From assembly GCA_017432825.1 (NCBI GenBank), contig JAFRIJ010000011.1, positions 34,591 to 98,590 on the forward strand: a stretch of DNA of 64,000 nucleotides. The letters run 5' to 3'. Positions 7,169-50,787 of the stretch are shown piece by piece. A program made the translations under genes and the position numbers. Below the pieces are notes generated by a model that worked only from the letters and a program-made list of their open reading frames with translations, had not been told where the DNA came from and ran no database searches. This DNA is from Bacilli bacterium. GTDB lineage: Bacteria > Bacillota_I > Bacilli_A > RF39 > UBA660. Each line of letters starts with the position of its first letter. Position 1 is the stretch's first letter.

Positions 7169-8494
7169 TTAGTTTTTGATTATTTCACCATTTGAATCTA
7201 TTTTAATTTTATTTTCTGAATAGTTAATTATGTTATTTATTACTTTATTTTTTTCATTATCTTTTAATAAGAATGTATATTCATCTTTTTGATGAGCAGG
7301 AATTATATAATGCTTGAAATTTCCTTCATTATCTATTAATAGTTTATATATCATTGTATCTTTATCTTCATCATTAAAAATAAAATCACCTAGGTTATAA
7401 ATTATAGCTTTATCTTTATAAAAATCTATTCCTTGTAATACGTGAGCATGTGTTCCTACTATTAGGTCTGCTCCTGCATCTATATATGTTTTAGATGTAT
7501 CTATTTGAACTTGTTCTAATTCATGTGAATCTTCTTTCCCCCAATGTATAAGTGCAATTAAAAAATCACTTTCTTTTTTTGTTTTAGTTATTAATTCTGT
7601 AAATAGTGTTGGGTCATAGCATCTTAATACTCCTGGTTCTGTATCTGTTGCTTCTGGAGTTAAAATATTTTTTTCTGATCTATTAGCGTTTATAAAAGAT
7701 ATTTTATAACCATTTGTTATGAAATAATATGGAGTACTTGCTTCACTTATATTTTTTCCTGCTCCTATATGTGGTATTTTATAATTATCAAATGATTCTA
7801 ACATATCTAGGAATGCATATTCACCAAAATCGTAGACGTGATTATTTGCTAATGTTACTAAGTCTATTCCCATTTCATTATATATTGGTAATCTTTCTGG
7901 TTTTGCTCTAAATGTATAATATTTATTAGGCATTTTTTCTCCTCTATTACTTACTGTAAATTCACTATTAGCAACTGAAAGAGTTGATTTTGTTAATTCA
8001 TCTACTACTTCTTCACTTAGTATTCCTAATATTTTTTTATTTCTTTCATCATATTTAGGTGCTATATACCAGTTATCAGCTAAAGAAACATCTCCTATAA
8101 AATTAATCGTTATTTCTTTGTTATTTTCTTTTTTTATTGTTATATTAGTCATATTATCATATTTATTATTATATAAATCTTGTAATACTATTAAAGAGTT
8201 TCCTGTTATTTTATGCCATATATTTTCATTATATTCGTTATCTTTTAAATAATTATCTATTTTAGGTATTGAATCTTTATAATTATTACTTATCCATTTA
8301 AGAAATGATTCATCTATATTATTTATATTATGTGATAAGATATTATTTATTATTTCTTTATCATTACTCTTTTTTTGTGGTTTAGATTGATTTAGGTTTA
8401 TTTTTTTATATGCTAATAATGATAATATTATTATTGGTAATAAGAATATTAATATCTTTACTTTTCTTTTTAGTTTTCTTTTTTTTCTTACCAT
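7169..8494 (-). CDS. CapA/PGA_cap-family metallophosphatase-like protein (poly-gamma-glutamate capsule synthesis type), membrane-anchored
   Basis: N-terminal basic stretch followed by a TM helix. It has the FIGDVSLADNWY segment and HWGKE/GTHAH motifs typical of CapA-like proteins. Confidence 0.65.
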   Translation of the reverse strand: MVRKKRKLKRKVKILIFLLPIIILSLLAYKKINLNQSKPQKKSNDKEIINNILSHNINNIDESFLKWISNNYKDSIPKIDNYLKDNEYNENIWHKITGNSLIVLQDLYNNKYDNMTNITIKKENNKEITINFIGDVSLADNWYIAPKYDERNKKILGILSEEVVDELTKSTLSVANSEFTVSNRGEKMPNKYYTFRAKPERLPIYNEMGIDLVTLANNHVYDFGEYAFLDMLESFDNYKIPHIGAGKNISEASTPYYFITNGYKISFINANRSEKNILTPEATDTEPGVLRCYDPTLFTELITKTKKESDFLIALIHWGKEDSHELEQVQIDTSKTYIDAGADLIVGTHAHVLQGIDFYKDKAIIYNLGDFIFNDEDKDTMIYKLLIDNEGNFKHYIIPAHQKDEYTFLLKDNEKNKVINNIINYSENKIKIDSNGEIIKN

Positions 8495-12387: not shown

Positions 12388-12984
12388 TTGAAGCAGTATT
12401 TTTTAGTTTCATCTATTAATCTTATTAAAAAGAATAAAAATTATACTGATGACGAGATAGAAATCATAGCGTATGGATTAGAAGGTATTTATCTTACTAT
12501 TACAAAGGCTGTTGTAATATTTGGCCTTGCTTTATTACTTGGTATTTTTAAAGAAGTTATTTATTTACTAATTTCCTATAATATTATTAGATCGCAAGCA
12601 TTTGGTATTCACGCTAGTAAAAGTATTTATTGTTTAATATCATCTTTAACTACTTTTATTGGTGGAGCTTATTTATGTATTTATCTAGTAATACCTTTTT
12701 GGTTAATGATTATTATTTCATTACTATGTATTGTATTTCTATTTTTATATGCTCCTGCAGATACAGAAAAAAGACCTATTGTTAATAAAAAGAAAAGAAT
12801 ACGATTTAAAGTTATTAGTGTTTCTTTGGGAATTATATATACAATTTTAATAATTATTTTTAAAGGTAAATTCTTATCTAATTATTTATTATTTGGTATG
12901 TTTATTAGTGTAATTATGATATTACCTGTTACATATAAGATATTTAAAATGCCATATAACAATTATAAAAATTATGGTGTATAA
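12388..12984 (+). CDS. agrB: AgrB-like membrane peptidase, the AgrD-processing enzyme
   Basis: A 198-aa polytopic membrane protein with the AgrB catalytic His/Cys context ...SQAFGIHASKSIYCLISS.... It has a TTG start preceded by aggtga and sits immediately upstream of an AgrD-like peptide ORF. Confidence 0.75.
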   Translation: MKQYFLVSSINLIKKNKNYTDDEIEIIAYGLEGIYLTITKAVVIFGLALLLGIFKEVIYLLISYNIIRSQAFGIHASKSIYCLISSLTTFIGGAYLCIYLVIPFWLMIIISLLCIVFLFLYAPADTEKRPIVNKKKRIRFKVISVSLGIIYTILIIIFKGKFLSNYLLFGMFISVIMILPVTYKIFKMPYNNYKNYGV

Positions 12985-13036
12985 TTAATTATTTTTAATT
13001 AATTTTACATAAATGTATTAAAAAGGAGGTTGTAAT

Positions 13037-13160
13037 AATGAAATTTTTAGCTGACATTTTAGCTCTTCTTGGAGGTTCTTCTGCTAAGGCTGGAACTCAA
13101 GGATGCTACTGGTGGTTTTTAGATGAACCTAAAGCTCCAAAATCTATTATAGAAAGATAA
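13037..13160 (+). CDS. agrD: AgrD-like autoinducing-peptide precursor, absent from the ORF track. As I read it, the N-terminal helix and the C-terminal part sit in frames offset by 1 nt.
   Basis: A strong RBS, aaaaggagg, lies 8 nt before the ATG at about 13037. The N-terminal amphipathic leader reads MKFLADILALLGGSS. A frame offset by one encodes ...AKAGTQGCYWWFLDEPKAPKSIIER, ending at the TAA at 13158-13160. Its DEPKAPK tail matches the conserved AgrD C-terminal motif (compare S. aureus AgrD-II, ...CSSLF DEPKVP...). Confidence 0.45.
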
Positions 13161-13178
13161 AAACTAATTCTTAAAGAA

Positions 13179-14477
13179 TTAGTTTTTTATTATTATTTTT
13201 TGTGTATATAATTTATCAGTAATATTTGTTTCAAGCTCAAAAGTATTACTATTATTAATAATAAATTTTAATAACAATAATCCATGCCCTCTATTCTTTC
13301 CTTTAGAAGATTTTTTGTTTTTATTATATTTATTTAATTCTTCTTTGGAATAAGAATTAGATATAATAATTTGACAATTATCTTTAATTAAATATGCTTC
13401 TATACCTAATAATTTCTCTTTTGATTCCTTTGATGCTTCAATCGCATTATCTAAAATAATACCTAATATTTTACCTAAATTTCTTTGTTCTTTAATATTT
13501 AACTTATAAATATTAGAATTTTTTATTCTTTTAGATATATTGATACTAGTATTTATTTTCTTTTCTTGTGCTTGTTGTGTTTTTAAATAACACAATCCTT
13601 TAATACCATTTGGAGGTAAATATCCAAATTTGGCATATTCTTCTTGTTTAACTTCTATTTTTTCTTTTAATATTTCATCAATATAATCAATTATTTCTTT
13701 ACCCTTTTCTTTATCTTGTATTTTACCCTTTATAGTGATAAATTCATTCTTAGTTTCATGTCTTAATATTCTTTGCTTTTCTATTTCATTTTCATATGTT
13801 GTCATAAATTCTAAAAGCTTATCGTATTCACTTGTTAGTTTATAATTTACTATTGTTTGTCTTACTAATGAAGAAAGTACAAATATTAATACAATAATAG
13901 AAACTAAATAAATTATAATATTATTACTAAATCTAAATTCTTTTATTAGTGTATAAAAGAATAAACCGATACATATTAGTGTTAAAATTGATAAAATAAT
14001 AATTTTTTTATTACTAGATATTTTGGTATTTATAACTTTTCTTAATAATTTTCTTAGTACAAATGTCGTTAAAACAAAACCAATACACATAAAAATGTTT
14101 GATAATAGACTGCCGGCATAGTTATTATATAGAAAATCTCTTTCTATATGTAATACTTCTGTAATTATAAATAATTCTATTATTTCTGGGATTAGTAATA
14201 ATAGTACATAAATGATAGTTAGAAATATTGACTTTGACCAATTTATTTTAAATATATATTTAAATACTAGTACGTGTATTAAACATACTAGTAATGTTTT
14301 GATTGTTCCATATAAGTATAAATTATTTAATGTATACGCGATAGAAGATATTATTAATATAGCAATTAATTCTATTTTTGATATTTTTATTTTTTCTTGT
14401 AATATTATTTTGGCAAAGATTATTTCGCATATACCCATTATAAATATGCCAATCCAAACACTAATAATTTGCAACAT
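13179..14477 (-). CDS. agrC: AgrC-like sensor histidine kinase (HPK10 family), 6-7 TM
   Basis: The N-terminal half is polytopic. An H-box ...RHETKNEF... and a C-terminal HATPase region (GHGLLL) follow. It overlaps the LytTR regulator gene by 17 nt and is convergent with agrB and agrD. Confidence 0.75.
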   Translation of the reverse strand: MLQIISVWIGIFIMGICEIIFAKIILQEKIKISKIELIAILIISSIAYTLNNLYLYGTIKTLLVCLIHVLVFKYIFKINWSKSIFLTIIYVLLLLIPEIIELFIITEVLHIERDFLYNNYAGSLLSNIFMCIGFVLTTFVLRKLLRKVINTKISSNKKIIILSILTLICIGLFFYTLIKEFRFSNNIIIYLVSIIVLIFVLSSLVRQTIVNYKLTSEYDKLLEFMTTYENEIEKQRILRHETKNEFITIKGKIQDKEKGKEIIDYIDEILKEKIEVKQEEYAKFGYLPPNGIKGLCYLKTQQAQEKKINTSINISKRIKNSNIYKLNIKEQRNLGKILGIILDNAIEASKESKEKLLGIEAYLIKDNCQIIISNSYSKEELNKYNKNKKSSKGKNRGHGLLLLKFIINNSNTFELETNITDKLYTQKIIIKN

Positions 14478-15183
14478 ATTCTCTTATTCCTTTTTTATTT
14501 CTGCTTGATAATAAATATACTGTTTTACCATTATTAAATGTTATTGTGCTGTCAGCATAATTAATCTTTTTTATTTGTTCTATATTTACTATACATGATT
14601 TATGTGATTGATAAAAACTAGGGCCTAATATTTTTACTAAGTTTGATATGCTTTGGTTTATCTCATAAGAGCTATCATCTTCCATAACAATTCTGCATTT
14701 TGAATTATCTTGTATCTTTTCAATATACAATATTTTTCTCATTGGTAATCTGTATGAGTTATGATTAAATTCAAATGATAATACTCTTTTCTTATCTAGT
14801 GATCTAATTGTATATATTATGGTTTCTTCGAATCTATCTTGCCATAATTTATCTTTATTAATAAAATCAATTGCAAGTAATCTTGAATAGAATATATCGT
14901 TTTGGCATTCTGGGTGTACTGTTAGGAAGATAATTGAACTATCTAGATCTTCTTCTCTTATTTCTGAAGCTATTTCTAATCCGGATATTTCTGGTAATTC
15001 TATATCTAATATATAGACTTTTTGTTCATTTTCATTTTTTATTATTTTAGATAATTCTTCATTATATTCTGTAAATTTACTTATTTTATATTCAAAATTA
15101 TATGGCATCATTACTTTATTTATGATTACTGATATTTTATCTTGGTATTGTTTTTTATCTTCACATATGATAAATCTTAACAT
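14461..15183 (-). CDS. agrA: AgrA-like response regulator with a LytTR DNA-binding domain
   Basis: Receiver domain (IICEDKK..., phospho-acceptor in ILDIEL) plus a C-terminal LytTR domain (...KCRIVMEDDSSYEINQSISNLVKILG...). Confidence 0.85.
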   Translation of the reverse strand: MLRFIICEDKKQYQDKISVIINKVMMPYNFEYKISKFTEYNEELSKIIKNENEQKVYILDIELPEISGLEIASEIREEDLDSSIIFLTVHPECQNDIFYSRLLAIDFINKDKLWQDRFEETIIYTIRSLDKKRVLSFEFNHNSYRLPMRKILYIEKIQDNSKCRIVMEDDSSYEINQSISNLVKILGPSFYQSHKSCIVNIEQIKKINYADSTITFNNGKTVYLLSSRNKKGIREYVANY

Positions 15184-16501: not shown

Positions 16502-18619
16502 TTATGGCTTTCTTTTTAGAATTAATTGTTTTGTTTTTAAATAGTCATCTTCTTTAACATCTTGTTGATTGAAACGTTTTTCTTCAAATTCAAACATTTC
16601 TATTTCACCTTTTGAATTGGTATACATATTAATAAAATATGCTCCCATAGTATTTTCTAATCCTTGTCTTATAGCAAATGGACTTTTTGCTGTTAAACAT
16701 GGCAATAATATTTCTATTACGTTTCTATATGCTAAAAACTCACTTTGATGGAAGTGTCCCATTCCTCCAACGTTTGGTTTGTTACCTGGTTCCATTTTAT
16801 CAATATATTTTTGAGGTCTATATGATAGGCTTGAGGCACATCCTCCTCCTGGATGATACATTTCTATAGATGTTTTTGGGCTTTCATCTGGATAATAAGT
16901 TGCTTTTTCACTTCCTAAATATTTAATATCTGGTCTTAAATATCCCAACATTTTTCCTATTTCTATACCGCCATTTTTATTGTGTGTGTCATCATGATTA
17001 CCACCAATAACTATTGTTTCTATGCCTTCTACTTGTGGCCAGTAATTTGCTACATATTCAACTTGATTTTGAGCACCTAATCTAAATAATTCGTATCTAT
17101 GATCAGGTCTATTTTGATAATCTCCATCTGTAATATCTCCAAAATGTAATACTGTACTTATATTTCTTTTAGCTGTTTCTTCATATATTTTATTTATCAT
17201 ATTTAATTGTTGCGATTCATTACATAAGTGTGTATCTGATATCCAGGTTTGACTTATTTTAGTTAGTTCATTTATTTTTGGTTTAATATCTTTAGATGTT
17301 GTTTTGCTTTTCTTTTTTATTACTATTTTTTCTCCATTTTTTTCAGTAATGGATACTTCATATCCTTTTACTTTAAATTCTTCTAATAGACCGTTAAATT
17401 TAAATTCAGTTGTTTTTAATTTATTTAATACATCTTGTAATGTTTCTCCACTTCTTATTGTGGAAAACTTTTTATTTGTTTCATCTTTTTTATATGTATG
17501 AGCTAAGTATATTTTTTGATTATCTTTTATATATAAGCTTTTAGCAGTTTTATAATCATCTCTTATGGTATTATAATATGGAATCCACATTTGTGTAGTG
17601 TTTTTTAAATATCCTTTTTTATCTTTTTCTAAAGTAACTATCCATCCGCCTATGGTGTTGTATACTGGGGTATTTGCATCTTTCATTTCATCTGTTGTTG
17701 CTACTATTGTTGGAACTTGATATGATCTTACTCCTCTTCTTAAGAATGAATCACATGCTGCAAAATGGCTTGTTACTAAAATATCTGTTTTATCTTCATT
17801 TCTCATTGAGGCAATTATTTGTTGTGGTTTATATGATACAGTATATGGAACATTTCCTTTTGAGTGTTGTAAGTATAATGTTACACTTCCATTTTTACCA
17901 TCATCTGATATAAATGATACCTTTTTTCTTCTTGGTCCTAAACATATCATATCATCTCTTTTGTATGCTATTAATCTACCTATATCTATTTTTTCTTTGG
18001 CTTTTAAGAATGATAAATCATGTTCTCCAGTAATAAAATATGTTGTTATTCCATCTACTCTTGGAAAAAATGCTGATACGCATTCTGCTTGGTCTTCATA
18101 ACCATTTTTATGTAATGTTGAATTATAAATACTTTTTGCACCGGTATAAATACCTTCTACTACATCACCTGTTAAAAAAACATATTTTACTCCTAATCTC
18201 TTTGCTTTAGAGTATAAATCATTCAATATGCTTGTTTGTTGATAAATACTTCCAAATCTTGTATCAGATATTAACATCATTTTTATTTTTTCATTATTAT
18301 CTACTATATTATAAGATAGGTCATTTATTAATTTTTCATGGCCAAAGTTACGTATTAAAGTTACTTGTGATTTTTCTTCATAATTATCTCTTTCTTTGTA
18401 TGCTGTTGTATTTATTGTAATGACATTGTTTCCTCTTCTTTTTAATTCGTGAATTAATATATACATATCTTCTTTGGATATGTTGTATGATTCACATAAA
18501 TCCTCTGCTATGCACTCTTGAGATAATGTATCAAATTGTAATTGGTCAGCATATTCTTTTAAATTTTCTTCGTTTATTTTAACAAGATTACTATTTTGTA
18601 ATTCCATATTCCCCTCCAA
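16502..18619 (-). CDS. Tandem calcineurin-like metallophosphoesterase, 705 aa; the N-terminal domain is degenerate and the C-terminal domain is intact
   Basis: The C-terminal domain carries all the motifs: WISDTH, HFGDITDG, GGNHDD and GMGHFHQ. The N-terminal copy has only LISDTRFGS, TGDVVEG and TGEHD. No signal peptide. Confidence 0.6.
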   Translation of the reverse strand: MEGNMELQNSNLVKINEENLKEYADQLQFDTLSQECIAEDLCESYNISKEDMYILIHELKRRGNNVITINTTAYKERDNYEEKSQVTLIRNFGHEKLINDLSYNIVDNNEKIKMMLISDTRFGSIYQQTSILNDLYSKAKRLGVKYVFLTGDVVEGIYTGAKSIYNSTLHKNGYEDQAECVSAFFPRVDGITTYFITGEHDLSFLKAKEKIDIGRLIAYKRDDMICLGPRRKKVSFISDDGKNGSVTLYLQHSKGNVPYTVSYKPQQIIASMRNEDKTDILVTSHFAACDSFLRRGVRSYQVPTIVATTDEMKDANTPVYNTIGGWIVTLEKDKKGYLKNTTQMWIPYYNTIRDDYKTAKSLYIKDNQKIYLAHTYKKDETNKKFSTIRSGETLQDVLNKLKTTEFKFNGLLEEFKVKGYEVSITEKNGEKIVIKKKSKTTSKDIKPKINELTKISQTWISDTHLCNESQQLNMINKIYEETAKRNISTVLHFGDITDGDYQNRPDHRYELFRLGAQNQVEYVANYWPQVEGIETIVIGGNHDDTHNKNGGIEIGKMLGYLRPDIKYLGSEKATYYPDESPKTSIEMYHPGGGCASSLSYRPQKYIDKMEPGNKPNVGGMGHFHQSEFLAYRNVIEILLPCLTAKSPFAIRQGLENTMGAYFINMYTNSKGEIEMFEFEEKRFNQQDVKEDDYLKTKQLILKRKP

Positions 18620-18740
18620 TGTAGTAGATACTTTTTCTACTTTTCTATTCTATCCTATGTTATAATATCATATTTTTAAAAAAAATATTTCTATATTAAT
18701 TAATAGTTTATGATAATTTTTTGTTATTTTATTGTTAACA

Positions 18741-18779
18741 AAAAAAAGACTATTGTTTATATATACTAGTCTTTTTTTT
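18741..18779. terminator. Hairpin between ssb and the metallophosphoesterase gene
   Basis: Stem agacta/tagtct with a 14-nt loop, flanked by A8 on one side and T8 on the other. On the minus strand it acts as the ssb terminator. Confidence 0.4.
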
Positions 18780-18781
18780 AA

Positions 18782-19147
18782 CTAATTATTAGTTTCTTTC
18801 TTTTTTGGCTTATCTTCTTTTTTCTTAGGTGCTTGGGCTAAGAATGTTACTTTTTCTGCTACTATTTCTGTTTTTTTCTTTTTAGATCCATCATCATTTG
18901 TTATTATTCTACTTTGTACACGTCCTTTTACACCAATCATATCTCCAACTTGACAATATTCTGATGTATTTTCTGCAACATTAGTCCATAGTGTGCAATC
19001 TAGAAAATCAGTTTCGTATTCACCATTCATATTTTTGTAATTTCTTGGTACTGCTAAGGTAATTGTACTTGTTTTTTTACCATTTTCTGTTAATCTTAAC
19101 TCTGGTGTTTTTACTAATCTTCCAACCAAAACAATTTGATTAAGCAT
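18782..19147 (-). CDS. ssb: Single-stranded DNA-binding protein (OB-fold) lacking the acidic DDDIPF-type C-terminal tail
   Basis: MLNQIVLVGRLVKTPELRLTENGKK...LAVPR... is typical SSB. I place the start at the second Met, preceded by gggagg with 7-nt spacing, rather than at the ORF-track start at 19180. The C-terminus ends in a basic KPKKKETNN instead of the acidic tip. Confidence 0.85.
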   Translation of the reverse strand: MLNQIVLVGRLVKTPELRLTENGKKTSTITLAVPRNYKNMNGEYETDFLDCTLWTNVAENTSEYCQVGDMIGVKGRVQSRIITNDDGSKKKKTEIVAEKVTFLAQAPKKKEDKPKKKETNN

Positions 19148-19370
19148 ATTTTTTCCTCCCTTCACGGGGGAATATAACATATTATTTTTTTATTACAAAA
19201 TTGTATTTTTTTATTTTTTGTATATAACTATAAACTATATTTTTAATTTGGCTTTTTTTATTTTTAAGTATTTGATAAATTGCTATTCATGTATTTTTAT
19301 TTTATATTTACATATTTTGTTTTTTTTCTTTATTTTTAAATATTTATTTTTTTAATTTGACACAAATTTG

Positions 19371-22055: not shown

Positions 22056-23246
22056 TTATTTTATATTAAATAATAAATATGCAATACAGAAGGAAAAGAC
22101 TAATATTATTATAAGTGCTAATAATAGTTGTGCAATATTAACAAATCCAGCGTTACTTTGATTTCTTTCTTGTATTTCTTTGGTTGTTAATAGTCTTTTA
22201 TAATTCTCTATATTTGTTTTTATGTTATTTAGCAACATATTATATGTATTTATATCTAGGTGATATTTAAATATAGTTGAGGCTATTTTTAATATCTTTT
22301 CTTCATTATTAATAATAAATGTTAATTTCTTTTCTACTTTATCATAATAATTGAATATTAGGGTTTCTGTCAATTCGTAGCGATTACATGTTATATCATT
22401 AAATGAAAACACATCATTGTTTTTTAATATTGTTGGAAATACATTATCAAATAATGGAGCAAAACTATATCTTTTTGTTTCTTTATCACATATTATTCCG
22501 TAGTCTTTAAAATTTCTTTCACTTTGATTAATTAAACTATCAAATATTAGCATTTCAAAATATTTTTGTTCTAATTTATTATAATCTTCTTCTAACATAC
22601 TAGGTAAACTTTTTAAGATATTTAATCCATAATTTATTGCAGTTATATAGTCTTCTTTGGTATTAGCTATTTTTAGATTATTACTTATATCTACCCATGG
22701 TTCTTTATTAATTCTTCCTGCATTGATTAGTTTGTTAAATCTTTTCTTTAAATTATCTACATCATAAAATTCATCATCATTTACTAGATCTTTGATTATT
22801 ATAGAATCTTTTTGTCTATTAGAATTATATAATCTATATTCTTCTACTAAATCAAATCCTAAGGCTTTACCGAATTGACATATTGCTATTTCTATATCAT
22901 CAACATTGGTATGTTTTTGATACCCTTTAAAACTATTTTCAACTAATACTTCTTCTTTTTCTGGATTAGTTATTGTTATACTTACTGGTTGTAGATAAAA
23001 ATTACTATTTTTATCAAATGTGGTTACATAATAATTCTTACCTTCTGGCAAAGGATTAGTGTTATTAATAGAAATTAGTAATCTATTTTGAAATTGATAA
23101 TATTCACATATATTAGTTACTTCATTTTTTATTTGTGATGTGTCTCTTGAATCATTTTGATATTTAGTAATTAATTCATTATATTGCATTCGTGTTAAAT
23201 TATAATTTCTACTTAATTCAGTTATCACGTTTAAATTATTATTCAT
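22056..23246 (-). CDS. HipA-like kinase-fold protein with a C-terminal TM anchor (tentative)
   Basis: GYQKH is P-loop-like. ...NQSERNFKDYGII... followed by ...YSFAPLFDNVFP resembles the HipA catalytic loop and the LAPAYD motif. A C-terminal hydrophobic helix is present. The similarity is weak. Confidence 0.35.
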   Translation of the reverse strand: MNNNLNVITELSRNYNLTRMQYNELITKYQNDSRDTSQIKNEVTNICEYYQFQNRLLISINNTNPLPEGKNYYVTTFDKNSNFYLQPVSITITNPEKEEVLVENSFKGYQKHTNVDDIEIAICQFGKALGFDLVEEYRLYNSNRQKDSIIIKDLVNDDEFYDVDNLKKRFNKLINAGRINKEPWVDISNNLKIANTKEDYITAINYGLNILKSLPSMLEEDYNKLEQKYFEMLIFDSLINQSERNFKDYGIICDKETKRYSFAPLFDNVFPTILKNNDVFSFNDITCNRYELTETLIFNYYDKVEKKLTFIINNEEKILKIASTIFKYHLDINTYNMLLNNIKTNIENYKRLLTTKEIQERNQSNAGFVNIAQLLLALIIILVFSFCIAYLLFNIK

Positions 23247-28013: not shown

Positions 28014-30437
28014 TTATATTTTAGTTACTCTTTTTCTTGTTAATGTAATTATTGATGTTAATATTATTACTATAGAGATTATGATTGCTAAAGTTATGTT
28101 ACTTATTATATGGCTGTCACTGTATTGATCTTTTAGAATATTTATTGTGTAATCTTTTGTTGTTTTTGCTTCTGAAGTTACTGTAATAGTTATAATACTA
28201 TTATTTTTTAGTTTTTCATTTCCAGTAATTTTATATGTTGAAGATGAATCGTTTAATGTAACTTTTATATCTAATTTTTTATCATTCTTTATTGGCAAAT
28301 CATATATATATTTATCTTTTTGATAGTTTAATTCATATCCTTTTATTATTATACTTTTGATAGATGTATCATCAGATAATTTCTTTTTATTTGCAATTAC
28401 TACATATTTACATTTGTTTCCATCTTTTCCTGTTACAGTAATTGTTATAATATTTTCCCCTACTTTTAAATTAGATGGTTTATCTATTTCAATTTTAGAA
28501 TCTTTACTTGTAGGTATAGCAGATATATTTAAATCATTAACATCTCCATTTACTGTTACTTCATATTTAAATGTATCTTTATTAAATTTAATATTATAAT
28601 CATTTACTTCTAAATCAGTTAAACTTACATCTTCTTTTTCTGTATTTGTTTTGTTATCATTTTTATTATTATTTTTAGGTTTTTCTTGAGGTAATGGTCT
28701 TGTTACTGAAATGGTATATATTCTTTCTTCTCCTAATTCACTTGTTACTTTTATTTTAAATAAATTTAATCCATATGAAAGATGTTTATTACCTATATCT
28801 CCTTCTAATTTTTGTTGTTCGCTATTTTTAATTGCTTTTATTATTATATTTTCTTTATCTGTTGTTAGTGTATAATCTAATTTTTCTTTATTAAAGTTAG
28901 GTACTATTTTTTCAGTTTCTACAGATAAACTTTTTAAATAATTATCTTCATCCAATCTTCTAGTAATAGTAGCGGTATATGTTGTTTCGCCACATTTATT
29001 ACCTATAATTCTTATATTTGACGTTCCTTCTGATACTTGTGTTATCGTTAAATAATCATTTTCTATTTTACATGTTGCAACATTATTATTACTACTTACG
29101 CAAGATAAATCCCCTGCGTTTTCATTTGTTATTTTTACAACTAATTTTTTTCCATTTAATGGTGTTGTACCGTTTTGGGCTGATAATGATAGTTTATATA
29201 CTTTTGCTGTAAATCCAACTTCGTTATGTCCATTACTTTCTGTAAAAATTATTCTTGCATCTCCTGCTTTGTTTCCTGTTAATATTGAAATGCTTTTTCT
29301 ATATAAAGATGCATTCATTACTATATTTCTATCACTAATACTTTTTGTACTAATACTACCAAAATTAAATCCACTTACTATTATGCTGGCTCCAATACTA
29401 TTATTTTTTTCAATACATCCTTCTTTTGGAAACATTGTAAATGATGTAAATAATACTTCTAAGTTTAATTCTGTTTCTCCATATGTTGGACTTATTACTT
29501 TTACTATTGTTTGACCATCGTCTATTGGTCTTAGTATTAATTTTTTATCTTCGATACTACAACTTGCTATATTTGGATTATCTATAGTACAGGTTAATTC
29601 ATTATAATTTAGGGCACTTATTGGTATTTCACTATCATATGCTCCTCTATATGTTGTTAAGGATTGCTGTGATAATTTAGGCCTGTTATCTACAATTACT
29701 CTAGCTGTTTTAGATAAACTATTATCTTTAGTCGTTGCTGTAATTGTTGTTTCTCCTTGATTAATAGCGATTATTTTACCTGTTTCATCAACTGTTGCTA
29801 CACTGGTATTACTACTTGTCCAATTAAGATTTTGGTTTAGGATTATATTAGGACTAACTGTATAAATGATTCTTTCAGTCTCATTTGTTACAAGAGTTAT
29901 TTCTGTTTTGTTTAATTGTAGAGAGCTATAACTGCTGTTTAAATAATCATTTATTGTATCCAAATCTTCTATTGTAATACTATTATCTTTATTTATATCA
30001 ATCGCTTTTATTTCTATATCTGTTAGAGTTATTTCTTTATCTAAGTGCTTTTGTAATTTGTTTAAGTCTTCTATATTTACTATTCCATCTTTAGTAATAT
30101 CTCCGGTAATTATATTTGTGTATGTTCCTACTAAATTGTTAGCACTATTATATACTAAGGTTTTAGTTCCAGTATAGATATTTCCACTGGTTAATTCTAT
30201 ATCATTTTCATTTATTATTTTTAGGTAGCAATTATTTATGTCAAAATATTTTTTAAATAAATTAATACTAGTATTTGGAGATATATTGGTGATAGTATTA
30301 TTACTAATATTATATATATCTGTTTTAAATTCTATATTTGAAGCAAAAGTAAATTTTTTAATAGTAGATAGTAGTACTATTAAAAAAGTTAATATAAATA
30401 CTAATGAAACTAATATATTTGTTCTTTTCTTTTTCAT
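28014..30437 (-). CDS. Large surface protein carrying an N-proximal type-I dockerin module, Big_2 Ig-like domains, three cadherin-like beta-sandwich repeats and a C-terminal TM anchor
   Basis: Dockerin F-hand pair GDITKDGIVNIEDLNKLQKHL ... DINKDNSITIEDLDTINDYL. Cadherin-like repeats begin DNYLKSLSVETEKIVPNF, VSLTDLEVNDYNIKFNKD and DTSIKSIIIKGYELNYQKD. The C-terminal hydrophobic helix is followed by RKRVTKI. Confidence 0.6.
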   Translation of the reverse strand: MKKKRTNILVSLVFILTFLIVLLSTIKKFTFASNIEFKTDIYNISNNTITNISPNTSINLFKKYFDINNCYLKIINENDIELTSGNIYTGTKTLVYNSANNLVGTYTNIITGDITKDGIVNIEDLNKLQKHLDKEITLTDIEIKAIDINKDNSITIEDLDTINDYLNSSYSSLQLNKTEITLVTNETERIIYTVSPNIILNQNLNWTSSNTSVATVDETGKIIAINQGETTITATTKDNSLSKTARVIVDNRPKLSQQSLTTYRGAYDSEIPISALNYNELTCTIDNPNIASCSIEDKKLILRPIDDGQTIVKVISPTYGETELNLEVLFTSFTMFPKEGCIEKNNSIGASIIVSGFNFGSISTKSISDRNIVMNASLYRKSISILTGNKAGDARIIFTESNGHNEVGFTAKVYKLSLSAQNGTTPLNGKKLVVKITNENAGDLSCVSSNNNVATCKIENDYLTITQVSEGTSNIRIIGNKCGETTYTATITRRLDEDNYLKSLSVETEKIVPNFNKEKLDYTLTTDKENIIIKAIKNSEQQKLEGDIGNKHLSYGLNLFKIKVTSELGEERIYTISVTRPLPQEKPKNNNKNDNKTNTEKEDVSLTDLEVNDYNIKFNKDTFKYEVTVNGDVNDLNISAIPTSKDSKIEIDKPSNLKVGENIITITVTGKDGNKCKYVVIANKKKLSDDTSIKSIIIKGYELNYQKDKYIYDLPIKNDKKLDIKVTLNDSSSTYKITGNEKLKNNSIITITVTSEAKTTKDYTINILKDQYSDSHIISNITLAIIISIVIILTSIITLTRKRVTKI

Positions 30438-33126: not shown

Positions 33127-34314
33127 TTACTCTTGAGTTTCTAGAATACTAGGGTCTATTTTAGATATTTCTCCTATATTTTCTATTACGCTTATAAACA
33201 TTTTTATATCTAGTATTGTTTCTTTTTCTTCTTTATTTATTATTATTATTTTCTTAATTTCTTTTATATTTGGATTATCTTTTTTTAGTTTTCTTTCTAT
33301 ATAATCTTTGGCTTTATTAATTGCTATATCTTCTGGATATACTTCATCTAATACTTTTAATTCGTATTGTTTTTCTTTTATTAATTTTATTGTTGATAAT
33401 TGATTACTTAATAATATTTTATCTTTAGATTTAAAAGACTTGTATTTTTTAAAATTAAAGAAAGATATTCTTTTGTTTATAAGTTTTAATACATAAATAG
33501 TTTTATTTTTTCCAGTTAAGTTTTCTTCTCTATAGATATAAGGATACTGCATCGATACTTTATACCACACTTCTCCATATACTTCGCCGCTTGCCATAAT
33601 AGGTATTTTACTATTATTAGGTAATGTTATGTATCCCGCTATTATAATATCTCCTTTATTTACATAATCATTTACATTTTTTACTTTTTCTCCACTTAAA
33701 GCTTTTATTTCTGTTATAGTGGCTTTCTTTTTTGATATTATATTTTGATATTCATATTCTTTTTTATTATCATTTATTTTTCTTTCTTCTATTCTTACAA
33801 TATATTTAGTTCCGCTTTCTTTTATTTCAATCCATTCTAATTTATCTTTATTTTCTTCTAATATTTTATCTTCTATTTTCTCTAATTTACTAAAACTTTT
33901 TTTAAATTTATATTTTTTTATTCCATTTTTTTCTAATTCTTCTTTTAATAATCTTCTTATTTCTTTGTCTTCATGTATTATATCTATGGAAAAAATTATA
34001 TTTGACAAGGTAATGATAATTGAAATACCTATTAATAGTGATACTATTAATATTTGATTTTTTTTAACAATTTTTCTTATTTTTAATTTCCCATATGTAT
34101 TAATTATTGATATTTTATATATAGATTTGTATTTTGTTAATTCTCTATAATCTTTATATTTTAATATTATATGAGCTTCTTTATAAGAAATTGGTATTAA
34201 TTTAATAATATTTATTTTTCTTTTTATTAATCTTTTAATATAATTATTAATATTTTTACCTTCTACTTTTATTTTTACAATATTATCAAAATTATCTAGG
34301 TATTTATTTTTCAT
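33127..34314 (-). CDS. yqfD: Sporulation protein YqfD-like
   Basis: The N-terminus ...IVKIKVEGKNINNYIKRLIKRKINIIKL... followed by one TM and about 390 aa matches the YqfD pattern. It sits directly downstream of a YqfC-like gene. Confidence 0.55.
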   Translation of the reverse strand: MKNKYLDNFDNIVKIKVEGKNINNYIKRLIKRKINIIKLIPISYKEAHIILKYKDYRELTKYKSIYKISIINTYGKLKIRKIVKKNQILIVSLLIGISIIITLSNIIFSIDIIHEDKEIRRLLKEELEKNGIKKYKFKKSFSKLEKIEDKILEENKDKLEWIEIKESGTKYIVRIEERKINDNKKEYEYQNIISKKKATITEIKALSGEKVKNVNDYVNKGDIIIAGYITLPNNSKIPIMASGEVYGEVWYKVSMQYPYIYREENLTGKNKTIYVLKLINKRISFFNFKKYKSFKSKDKILLSNQLSTIKLIKEKQYELKVLDEVYPEDIAINKAKDYIERKLKKDNPNIKEIKKIIIINKEEKETILDIKMFISVIENIGEISKIDPSILETQE

Positions 34315-48167: not shown

Positions 48168-48668
48168 TTAAATTAAAATTGATTCAATTATTAATTGCTT
48201 TGTTTTATTGGTTTTACTACAGGTTATTAATATTAATTTATCTGATTTGTTATTATCTATTGTCATATATCCTGTTTTATTAATATAATATATTTTATTT
48301 ATTTTATAAGTATATATTGTACTATTATAATAAATGTATATTAAATCATTTATTGACAGATATACTAATTTATTAAAATAGGCATTATTGTTATTTCCCG
48401 AATGAGATGCTAGGATAATAAATTTATTATTTATATTCGATTCTTTTAATAGTTCTATATTTATTTCCACATTATTCTTAGGACTATTTATGTTGTATAT
48501 TTTTTTATCTATATTAATTTTAGGAATAATTAATTTAAATAGATAATCTTCTTTTGGTAGCGTTTTATTTACTAATTTTTTGTTATAAACTATTTTGTTT
48601 TTTATTTTGCTTTCTTTTGGAATTGGTAATAGTAATACTACTATTAATATAATTATTAGCTTTTTTAT
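48168..48668 (-). CDS. Small sortase-like transpeptidase. The ORF-track version (48168..48470, GTG start) holds only the C-terminal half. The in-frame upstream extension encodes the membrane anchor but has no ATG, GTG or TTG start; an ATA at about 48667-48669 follows an aggag RBS.
   Basis: Conserved His context ILASHSG and the TLxTC-like active site LILITC. The upstream in-frame extension reads KKLIIILIVVLLLPIPKES...KLIIPKINIDKKIYNINS.... No Arg follows the Cys, only Lys residues. Confidence 0.5.
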   Translation of the reverse strand: MKKLIIILIVVLLLPIPKESKIKNKIVYNKKLVNKTLPKEDYLFKLIIPKINIDKKIYNINSPKNNVEINIELLKESNINNKFIILASHSGNNNNAYFNKLVYLSINDLIYIYYNSTIYTYKINKIYYINKTGYMTIDNNKSDKLILITCSKTNKTKQLIIESILI

Positions 48669-50787
48669 AAATTATCACTCCTATTAAAACTAAGATTATT
48701 TTTATATAATTGAGTATATTTATTCTATTACTTAGAGTATTTGGTATTGTTATTTGTGTATTATTATCTTCTTCTATTTCAATGGTATTATTATTTATTT
48801 TTTCTGTTAATACTACTTTTTTGTTATTATCATCTTCTGTTAGTACTAGGCATTCTTTAGTGTTTTTTTCTTTTATACAATAAGTTGCTAATTCTAAATT
48901 ATTTAATTCTAATACCCCATTTTTATTTGTTTTATAATTGTTTATTAATACATTATCTTTATATACTTCTATTTCAACATTTTCTCTTTTAGATATTATC
49001 TTTTTATTATCTATATTTTCTTCTTTATTTGTAATTATTTTTATACTTCCTTTTATTTTGGTATTAAAATAGTCAATATTTACTAATAATTCTTTTTCGG
49101 TGTTTATATAATTGGTTTTATCATTAATGATTATTGTTAAAATTTCTTTATTATTTTGATAATTTTTAGGTGAATTTACTTGTTCTATATAATAAGTACC
49201 ATAAGGTATTTCAAATGGTAATAAGAGTTTTCCACTTTCATCTGTGGAAAAAGCTTCTATGTTATTATGTGATAAATAATTTCCTTTTTCATCTTTTATT
49301 TTATATTTAATTTGGTTATCGTTTATTTCATTTAATGTCTCTTTATCTTTAGTGGTTATTTGTAATTTTGTTTTTATTTGTTTATTTATTAGTGTATAAT
49401 TGTATGGATTATTTATTTCTCTATCTACAATAAAATATAAAATTGGGGCTTTTTCATATCCGTAAGTAGTGTTTTCTTGAATTACTTTATATTTTCCATA
49501 AGGTAATGTTATTATACTGCTACCTTGTTTGGTTGTTATTATAGATCCAAAATAATTTGTTGTTTTATCATAAAATTTAAAAGTAAATTCTATATTTTCT
49601 TCTCTTTCAAGTTTATTATTTACTTCGTAGAATTTATTAATTTCAAACTGGCGTTTTATTACTTCTTCTTCTAAGGTAATATTACCAGTTTTAGATAAAT
49701 CCACTTCAATTAGCTCTTCATTTTTTTTATATCCTTCACTTGCTTTTATTTGCTTAATATAATATTTTTCTTTATACAAATTATCTATTGTGTATTTTAA
49801 ACTACTATCAAATTTAAATGAAGTTACTAAATTATTGTTTTTATCATATAATTCATATTCTGCTCCTTCTAAAGTAGCTTGTCCTTTTGGAATAGTAGTT
49901 TTGGTATCTTTATCTACTAGATTTGTCTCTAGTTTATATCCTTCAATATTTATAGTTACTTCCTTTGTATTAGATGGGATATATCCTTTGGATATTAATA
50001 ATTGGGAATTATTATTACTATATACTTTTTTAGGTATATTTGTATAATTGTTTATACTTAATACTACTTTAGCAGTTCCAAAATAATTATCTACTGTAGA
50101 CAGTTTTAAATTATTGTTTGTTTTGTCTCCTATAATATTTTGTATATTATTTATTTTATATAAGAATAAGTTGCTACTAAAGAATGTAATAGTGTCTCCT
50201 ATTTTTAAATTTACATTGGATGGAACATTTAATTTTTCAGTATAACTATTTATTTTGCTTTTTATTTCATTAATGTAACTATCTATGTTTATTCTATTAC
50301 CATTTATATCTTCTTCATTAGTCCAGGTTATATCTAGATTTTTGTTTAAATATTCCCATATTATTTCTTGAGTTGCCATATAATATTCTTTTTCACTATG
50401 TATTTTTTCTTCATTTTCTTCATATTGATAGCCAAAATAGGCTACTAGATTTATGTATTCTAGTTGTTCTTTAGTTAAGTTAGTTATTCTTTGTTGTTCT
50501 TCTATATTGTCAGTAGAATTATATGTAGTTGTTGTTATACTTTTACCTATTTCAATACAATAGCTAGGTATATTATTAATTGTAAATATCTCTAAGTTAT
50601 ATAAGTGGGTTCTATCACTTAATGGTGCTATGGCAAATATTCCATCTTGTTTATTTCTTACTAAAACTGAATCATTTTCTTTAGCATACACACTAGTTAT
50701 TCCTGTAAATAATATTAATAATAATATTATTAATTTATTACTTTTTATTCTTTTTTTATTTTTTTTGCTTATATTCATTTCTTTCAC
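48583..50787 (-). CDS. Thioester-domain (TED) adhesin with Cna-B / prealbumin-like stalk domains, a signal peptide and a C-terminal sorting-signal-like tail
   Basis: Signal peptide MKEMNISKK...SVYA. Thioester Cys motif YCIE and Gln motif TQEIIW. Cna-B-like repeats include LEGAEYELYDKNNNLV...YYIKQIKASEGY. The tail ...IPNTLSN... is followed by a hydrophobic stretch and KK. Confidence 0.7.
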   Translation of the reverse strand: MKEMNISKKNKKRIKSNKLIILLLILFTGITSVYAKENDSVLVRNKQDGIFAIAPLSDRTHLYNLEIFTINNIPSYCIEIGKSITTTTYNSTDNIEEQQRITNLTKEQLEYINLVAYFGYQYEENEEKIHSEKEYYMATQEIIWEYLNKNLDITWTNEEDINGNRINIDSYINEIKSKINSYTEKLNVPSNVNLKIGDTITFFSSNLFLYKINNIQNIIGDKTNNNLKLSTVDNYFGTAKVVLSINNYTNIPKKVYSNNNSQLLISKGYIPSNTKEVTINIEGYKLETNLVDKDTKTTIPKGQATLEGAEYELYDKNNNLVTSFKFDSSLKYTIDNLYKEKYYIKQIKASEGYKKNEELIEVDLSKTGNITLEEEVIKRQFEINKFYEVNNKLEREENIEFTFKFYDKTTNYFGSIITTKQGSSIITLPYGKYKVIQENTTYGYEKAPILYFIVDREINNPYNYTLINKQIKTKLQITTKDKETLNEINDNQIKYKIKDEKGNYLSHNNIEAFSTDESGKLLLPFEIPYGTYYIEQVNSPKNYQNNKEILTIIINDKTNYINTEKELLVNIDYFNTKIKGSIKIITNKEENIDNKKIISKRENVEIEVYKDNVLINNYKTNKNGVLELNNLELATYCIKEKNTKECLVLTEDDNNKKVVLTEKINNNTIEIEEDNNTQITIPNTLSNRINILNYIKIILVLIGVIIYKKANNYINSSITITNSKRKQNKKQNSL

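Follow-up and report, generated by a model that had tools for sequence, protein, structure and literature searches.

A tandem winged-helix metallophosphoesterase of uncultured Bacilli as a putative enzyme-pseudoenzyme pair allied to archaeal DP1

Here we analyse a 64-kb window of DNA (G+C ~24%, nearly all genes on the minus strand) from a Bacilli bacterium, contig JAFRIJ010000011.1, and within it a gene for a protein with two metallophosphoesterase (MPE) domains, each preceded by a winged helix-turn-helix (wHTH), together with the gene for a single-stranded DNA-binding protein (SSB) immediately upstream. We propose, at a probability of roughly 0.6, that the tandem protein is a single-chain pseudo-heterodimer of one active and one catalytically dead wHTH-MPE module, that it belongs to a family sister to DP1, the small subunit of archaeal DNA polymerase D (PolD), that it acts as a DNA nuclease, and that the SSB is independent of it. 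An original prediction, made from the letters of the window, had described a 705-aa open reading frame (ORF) with two calcineurin-like domains, the C-terminal one complete, and all of its motifs were reproduced here.

Two winged-helix phosphoesterase units in one chain

The longest reading of the gene begins at a TTG codon (Table 1). Because a GGAGGGG ribosome-binding site precedes ATG 18607, that codon is probably the true start, giving a protein of 701 aa; a database protein of this length (P0001) is 100% identical to the tandem protein of the window.

Table 1. Coordinates of the tandem MPE gene, its domains, the SSB gene and the agr-like cassette, numbered from the first letter of the window
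Feature	Position	Strand	Basis or remark
Whole ORF, tandem wHTH-MPE protein	16502..18619	(-)	stop codon 16502-16504; 705 aa from TTG 18619
Winged-helix module 1, residues ~17-92 (three helices, then a long beta-hairpin wing)	18344..18571	(-)	AlphaFold2 (AF2) secondary structure; hhalign with module 2
N-type (pseudo-catalytic) MPE domain, residues ~108-372	17504..18298	(-)	motifs; AF2
Winged-helix module 2, residues ~380-436	17312..17482	(-)	AF2; hhalign
C-type (catalytically complete) MPE domain, residues ~450-700	16520..17272	(-)	PF00149; PF12850; family-wide ligands; pLDDT mostly >90
SSB gene, 121 aa from ATG 19147	18782..19147	(-)	OB-fold SSB with Lys-rich mixed-charge tail; ORF 18782-19180 = 132 aa
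Intrinsic-terminator-like hairpin, 14-bp A/U-rich stem plus U-run	18739..18780	(-)	dG (folding free energy) -11.8 kcal/mol, z -3.42
AgrB	12388-12984	(+)	
AgrD-like precursor ORF, 40 aa, MKFLADILALLGGSSAKAGTQGCYWWFLDEPKAPKSIIER	13038-13160	(+)	between AgrB and kinase
AgrC-like kinase	13179-14477	(-)	
LytTR regulator	14461-15183	(-)	

The two halves are, as judged from their alignment, real paralogues, and a chance resemblance is excluded. Residues 96-360 and 441-705 share 27% identity over 229 residues by BLASTP (E 1e-26), and hhalign pairs the halves at a probability of 99.85% over 303 columns, an aligned region that takes in the small helical domain ahead of each MPE. The AF2 model used here, built on an alignment (A8) to which divergent tandems and split units had been added, has a pLDDT of 88 over the whole chain and a pTM of 0.78; a first model, built on 21 close homologues (alignment A1), was dropped at pLDDT 63, with residues 253-323 below 30. 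In the A8 model three helices and a beta-hairpin lead into an MPE domain, a pattern that occurs twice, and before motif I each unit has only the winged helix and one short strand (102-106). Equivalents of the two small modules in divergent homologues match MarR, TrmB and HTH_24 winged-helix models, and an N-type profile reaches a MarR-family PDB chain at E 0.048. On the strength of this order of elements and of the winged-helix matches in homologues, we assign the architecture wHTH - MPE(N) - wHTH - MPE(C). A low-confidence linker at residues 375-377, ahead of winged-helix module 2, marks the site at which the gene boundary lies in species where the two units are encoded separately.

Metal ligands, pairing and spread of the two units

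All eight metal-binding and catalytic residues are present in the C-terminal domain, in which the five motifs DxH, GD, GNH(D/E), H and GHxH read D462-T-H464, G494-D495-IT-D498, G540-N541-H542-D543, H589 and G621-H622-F-H624. The same domain is recognized by PF00149 (47.6 bits against a cut-off of 21.5) and PF12850 (28.8 against 27); the best Pfam stretch is 460-554, and among the Pfam stretches listed there is none for an N-terminal MPE. The corresponding N-terminal motifs are D119-T-R121, G151-D152-VV-E155, G198-E199-H200-D201, H252 and S284-H285-F-A287, which keep five of the eight canonical positions and lose the motif I His (R121), the motif III Asn (E199) and the second His of motif V (A287). 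The reading of DTR for DxH and GEHD for GNHD in the original prediction was thus upheld on alignment, as part of three replacements among eight ligand positions. The N domain departs from the ligand motifs of the MPE superfamily, yet its fold in the AF2 model and its homology to the C domain (27% identity) place it there.

These differences extend across the family. The best 150 family representatives were sorted with N-specific and C-specific hidden Markov models (HMMs) into 111 C-type singles, 17 N-type singles, 18 N-C tandems and 3 C-C tandems, from which ligand statistics were drawn for 127 C-type and 35 N-type domains (Table 2). Every ligand position is kept in at least 93% of the C-type domains when Ser is counted with Asn at motif III. 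In N-type units the motif III Asn position is taken by E, P, D, K, Q or G. This family-wide loss of ligands supports the earlier suggestion of a pseudo-domain at the N terminus, either non-catalytic or altered.

Table 2. Canonical ligands kept in the C-type and N-type domains of the best 150 family representatives
Position	C-type (n=127)	N-type (n=35)
Motif I Asp	120/127	30/35
Motif I His	118/127	4/35 (Arg in 22)
Motif II Asp	123/127	19/35 (Asn in 16)
Motif III Asn	97/127, plus Ser in 24	1/35
Motif III His	126/127	11/35
Motif IV His	127/127	23/35
Motif V first His	120/127	16/35 (Gly in 16)
Motif V second His	127/127	6/35

We note that the C-type motif III Asn (N541, codon at window 16997-16999) is replaced by Thr in one subclade of close homologues (P0042, P0051, P0062, P0081 and P0116); to our knowledge, Thr or Ser in place of this Asn would be unusual in active metallophosphoesterases.

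A rather unlikely alternative holds that the N domain is not inert in the lineage of the window, in that it would keep metal site B (D152, E199, H252 and H285), with Arg121 in the place of metal A, and would either hydrolyse with a single metal or regulate the C-terminal enzyme by sensing phosphate or nucleotides. All four potential site B residues are indeed present, and among 21 homologues (63-84% identity) D119, R121, D152, E155, E199, D201, H252 and H285 of the N domain are invariant and H200 is nearly so, with region 253-323 highly conserved among close homologues. However, the N domain is no better conserved in this close clade than the rest of the protein, and distant N-type units carry Asn at motif II in 16 of 35 cases, have lost the motif IV His in 12 and have Gly for the first His of motif V in 16. 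The free replacement of ligands in these distant units rules out metal binding by the N unit as a requirement of the family's conserved function. We favour the reading in which metal site A is gone from the N module (His to Arg121 and His to Ala287) and site B is altered (Asn to Glu199). The module would then most likely be a partner without catalytic activity, shaping or positioning the substrate site and supplying a second winged helix. The C-terminal module is predicted to be a complete two-metal phosphodiesterase, against which the N module would pack as in a heterodimer, serving as its scaffold.

Pairing of the two units is obligate. Scanning metagenomes with the N-type singles as query gave 80 loci. 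Wherever both genes were called separately (19 of 19 loci), the C-type gene lies directly downstream of the N-type gene, at spacings from a 23-nt overlap to a 6-nt gap plus one gap of 116 nt, and the order is always N then C, as in the fusion. Where an N-type ORF stands without a called C-type ORF, the locus is at or near a contig end or looks truncated (L041, L076, L084 and L102), and the remaining loci carry the fused gene. In a neighbour-joining (NJ) tree of all domains, a single split places 34 of the 35 N-type domains on one side and all remaining domains on the other, a topology consistent with one old duplication. By these comparisons the N-type unit is no product of lineage-specific degeneration but an ancient paralogue, found always in the company of a C-type partner. 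We regard the tandem protein as a fused pseudoenzyme-enzyme pair because its N and C units are old paralogues, because N directly precedes C in 19 of 19 split loci and because the N-type ligands are lost family-wide. Under this scheme, an active wHTH-MPE unit, probably a homo-oligomer, would have been duplicated long ago, and one duplicate would have lost catalysis and become the obligate partner of the active copy; N and C would have stayed two abutting or overlapping genes in some lineages and been fused in some lineages of Bacilli, that of the window included.

A word-indexed search gave at least 167 close homologues at 64-85% identity, all from uncultured assemblies of the 'Bacilli', 'Firmicutes', 'Mollicutes' or 'Clostridium sp. 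CAG:914' type, and an exhaustive profile search of 1.84 billion representatives gave 2,450 proteins at E <=1e-3, 436 of them at <=1e-30. A large mixed alignment of 1,218 columns (A7) was discarded, as it had C-type singles misaligned onto the N half, and for the retrieval of loci alignments A3 and A4 were too divergent as queries and the smaller sets A5 and A6 worked. On viral contigs only C-type singles occur. PHROG 7339, 'DNA repair exonuclease', leads the viral families (E 9e-17), and the matches among viral predicted structures include single-unit homologues (A0A516LV74, E 1e-22) and several phage proteins to which annotators gave the label 'DNA polymerase II small subunit'. The sole match in 50,697 deposited phage and virus genomes is ORF43 of Halorubrum tailed virus BLv36 (L130, OQ850970.1 24880-26040), a 'hypothetical protein' of a haloarchaeal tailed virus with 31% identity.

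Some observations stand beside these. In one clade (L050, L051, L068 and L100; ~120-990 per locus) there is, roughly 6 kb upstream of the tandem gene, an extra short paralogue of the MPE, 206-289 aa long and with a weak N-type score. The BFVD entry A0A8S5P6X8 is a 660-aa predicted viral structure in which the fold is combined with a Hint/intein domain. In the close family, the C terminus of the tandem protein reads K-T-K-Q-L-V-L-K-(K/R) (window 16505-16540) and resembles a hexapeptide beta-clamp-binding motif. The hexapeptide is QLxLxL, and E. coli Pol IV ends in QLVLGL. We set K-Q-L-V-L-K aside as a clamp motif, given that its Gln is not kept family-wide and that N-type units have a similar basic tail; the segment may simply be the terminal strand.

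Closeness to DP1 and the predicted substrate

The closest structural neighbour of the tandem protein is DP1, which fills ranks 1-8 of the Foldseek results, and the sequence comparisons agree. The NCBIfam DP1 model NF003118 matches at E 1.3e-10, with its best stretch at residues 97-201, at a score of 40.8 bits that falls short of the 445-bit cut-off of the curated DP1 family. Searched with a profile built from diverse C-type singles, the full set of PDB sequences yielded DP1 chains (E 1.8e-4 to 7e-3) as the only MPE structures; this match runs past motif V (GHxH..YRxV....Q..F) and is strongest after it. PF04042 had no match in the tandem protein at E <=1. The DP1/B-subunit branch (NF003118, PF04042 and COG1311) comprises the 3'-5' proofreading exonuclease of PolD and the inactive B-subunits of eukaryotic polymerases. 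Independent sequence and structure-model comparisons thus indicate a specific closeness to DP1, and the tandem family is better taken as a DP1-like family in its own right, a putative sister of the DP1/B-subunit branch and not a member of it.

Architecture and context set the tandem protein apart from its nearest relatives. In DP1, a helical N-domain is joined to a phosphodiesterase domain with an OB (oligonucleotide/oligosaccharide-binding) fold inserted in its N-terminal part (PMC4996933). The tandem protein has no OB fold like the insertion of DP1 (PDB 5IHE, 6T8H and 8PPT) and has a winged helix before each MPE instead; in contrast to DP1, it is bacterial or phage-borne and has its unit doubled, one copy being active and the other inactive. 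The B-subunits of DNA polymerases alpha, delta and epsilon, which are inactive DP1 homologues, retain an OB domain and partner the polymerase catalytic subunit, whereas the inactive unit of the tandem has no OB and partners an active paralogue of its own family, its inactivation being independent of that of the B-subunits. The original prediction had offered Mre11/SbcD and YmdB/CapA-like proteins as candidates for the tandem protein, neither of which fits. Mre11/SbcD is clearly more distant than DP1 and is not the closest fold; the tandem protein lacks its capping domain, the neighbourhoods examined have no adjacent SbcC/Rad50 gene, and Mre11 dimers are symmetrical with both subunits active. 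YmdB/CapA-like proteins are neither the closest fold nor the closest family match. A CapA/PGA_cap protein of the window (7169-8494 (-), PF09587 E 4e-58) belongs to another MPE-fold family that is unrelated to the tandem protein. Vps29 and GAP50, which are pseudo-phosphoesterase scaffolds, are unrelated in sequence and context and have no active paralogous partner.

By analogy with DP1, the active module would hydrolyse phosphodiester bonds of nucleic acid, most likely as a Mn-, Fe- or Zn-dependent DNA exo- or endonuclease, and the two winged helices may bind DNA. An unlikely alternative is that the protein is not a nuclease and acts as a phosphoesterase on small molecules or proteins (cyclic or dinucleotide signals, Ap4A or phosphoproteins), with winged helices that would make it a DNA-binding regulator or would serve for protein contacts only. 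MPE enzymes as a class take many different substrates, and resemblance of fold to DP1 leaves the substrate unfixed.

Gene neighbourhoods are of little help here. The neighbours of the MPE gene are housekeeping genes that vary by clade (RNase HII, GlyRS, SepF/DivIVA, ClpB, RpoC, TilS, FtsH, phosphoketolase and MscL). RNase HII lies upstream in 17 of the 87 loci with a called upstream gene, at gaps of 76-140 nt, an adjacency that may be lineage synteny and is a weak lead only. In the neighbourhoods of about 100 loci, no polymerase-like gene is conserved beside the MPE gene and there is no DP2-like neighbour. A role in defence was rejected, as PADLOC gave only a marginal PDC-S10 match (E 2e-4). 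A promoter scan was not relied on, its matches being no more frequent than chance in 24% GC DNA.

Together with the breadth of MPE substrates, several points weigh against the proposed pseudo-heterodimeric nuclease. Gene context neither supports nor specifies a DNA function, and the phage contexts of C-type singles are heterogeneous (tape-measure/tail, endolysin, terminase, portal and primase) and form no consistent module. The model's pTM is the sole ground for the pseudo-dimer packing. Clustering of N-type domains in the NJ tree could be helped by long-branch attraction. A one-metal site could survive in the N module within the clade of the window, because D119, D152, E199, D201, H252 and H285 are invariant there and H200 nearly so, and the module may not be wholly inert in that clade. 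Finally, the source databases give the family no names beyond 'metallophosphoesterase' or 'hypothetical'.

The closeness to DP1 also brings to mind a more ambitious reading, which we consider improbable: that uncultured low-GC Bacilli and many phages possess a bacterial counterpart of DP1 and the B-subunits, made of an active DP1-like 3'-5' exonuclease in permanent partnership with an inactivated paralogue and acting at the replication fork or in the processing of Okazaki fragments or ribonucleotides. In such a counterpart the protein might perhaps be a trans-acting proofreader or a flap- or end-processing nuclease, perhaps together with RNase HII. If true, the pair would be a small-scale parallel to the step from DP1 to the eukaryotic B-subunits. 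Three reports describe PolD as confined to Archaea (PMC6741145, PMC7594292 and PMC10721889). Our literature searches on bacterial DP1 homologues and on pseudo-MPE heterodimers found nothing describing the tandem MPE family.

The SSB gene, the rest of the window and the wider meaning

The SSB gene upstream was called the only one in the window, ending in KPKKKETNN and lacking an acidic tip, and our re-reading of its 3' end agrees. Its start is most likely ATG 19147, which a GGGAGG site precedes. The product matches PF00436 over the full model 1-104 (102.9 bits against 26, E 1e-29) and TIGR00621 (88.7 against 53.95), and it is the only SSB-family ORF found in the window by an HMM scan of all ORFs of at least 50 aa. 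Its C terminus, AQAPKKKEDKPKKKETNN, is followed by TAG, and its last residues KPKKKETNN are without an acidic-hydrophobic tip, the D-D-D-I/L-P-F ending of the canonical replicative SSB being absent. The TAG and then a terminator-like hairpin come directly after the tail, and an error in reading the 3' end does not mask an acidic tip; a simple terminator scan had missed this hairpin, whose stem has fewer than three G-C pairs. Among the 120 nearest SSB homologues, which are 118-163 aa long and 79-95% identical in the OB domain, all have a Lys-rich, mixed-charge tail and none an acidic-hydrophobic tip. With all 120 alike, the tail-less SSB is a stable lineage trait and no artefact of annotation or sequencing.

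What kind of SSB this is can be narrowed in part. Like B. subtilis SsbB (YwpH), it has an OB fold, a length of about 110-130 aa and no acidic C-terminal tip (SsbB biology is treated in PMC3384303), and its best NCBIfam matches include a 112-position model, NF005242; it differs from SsbB in a conserved Lys-rich tail of ~18-35 residues. It is possible that the protein is 'SsbB-like', and the conservation of its OB domain fits a housekeeping role as well as an accessory one. The description 'phage-like', also offered in the original prediction, is not supported, given a conserved housekeeping synteny: the gene is flanked in the window by SufB, amidase, S41 peptidase and PcrA genes, with no prophage or mobile-element context.

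That prediction had further implied a link between the SSB and the tandem MPE. One could suppose a functional two-gene module in which, for example, the SSB hands single-stranded DNA to the nuclease, and the two genes are adjacent and co-oriented both in the window and in one related locus (L002) and one gene apart in another (L074). We consider such a module highly improbable. The SSB stop codon is followed by the terminator-like hairpin, and 174 nt lie between the genes, on account of which we treat them as separate transcription units, and the MPE gene has its own ribosome-binding site after the spacer. Nor is the pair conserved as neighbours: the SSB lies near the MPE gene in only 2 of 104 related cellular loci (L002 and L074; flanks of up to 6-7 kb on each side), and the MPE gene occurs in several other contexts. 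In other relatives the orthologous SSB sits between SufB and the S41 peptidase, in an array (PcrA - unknown - SufB - SSB - S41 peptidase (CtpA) - LytTR regulator - AgrC-like kinase - AgrB) without an MPE gene. This array recurs in the window, L002 and L074, where genes for an amidase and for the MPE are placed around the SSB. As the array exists elsewhere without the MPE gene, the adjacency is a recent rearrangement confined to the closest relatives. The SSB is a chance neighbour, and a functional link to the MPE gene is not supported.

Other genes of the window include a complete agr-like quorum-sensing cassette near the MPE and SSB genes (12388-15183; Table 1), an arrangement that is conserved, with its 40-aa gene, in relatives L124-L129. 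In the same relatives, a 396-aa protein with a C-terminal membrane anchor and no Pfam match (22056-23246 (-)) keeps its place between PcrA and SufB. An 807-aa protein (28014-30437 (-)) combines type I dockerin, Big_2 and cadherin-like domains, the dockerin being unexpected in a Bacilli-type genome of 24% GC. A YqfD stage IV sporulation protein (33127-34314 (-)) hints at spore formation in a small-genome, Mollicutes-like lineage, and a thioester-domain/SpaA-type adhesin lies at 48583-50787 (-).

The result for the SSB is a caution, in that adjacency in one genome was here a rearrangement and not a module. The tandem family itself may be of broader use. DP1 and the polymerase B-subunits are treated as a hallmark of archaea and eukaryotes, and a sizeable bacterial and phage family that stands nearest to DP1 would be a bacterial sister group and could inform the origin of the DP1 nuclease. 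The family has been annotated only as 'metallophosphoesterase' or 'hypothetical', and its N-type partner is missed altogether by Pfam. It would also offer a clean natural pairing of enzyme and pseudoenzyme that can be traced from active units standing alone (in phages and many bacteria) by way of neighbouring split genes to one fused chain. Its interest would be higher if the relationship to DP1 reflects a role in bacterial replication or repair.

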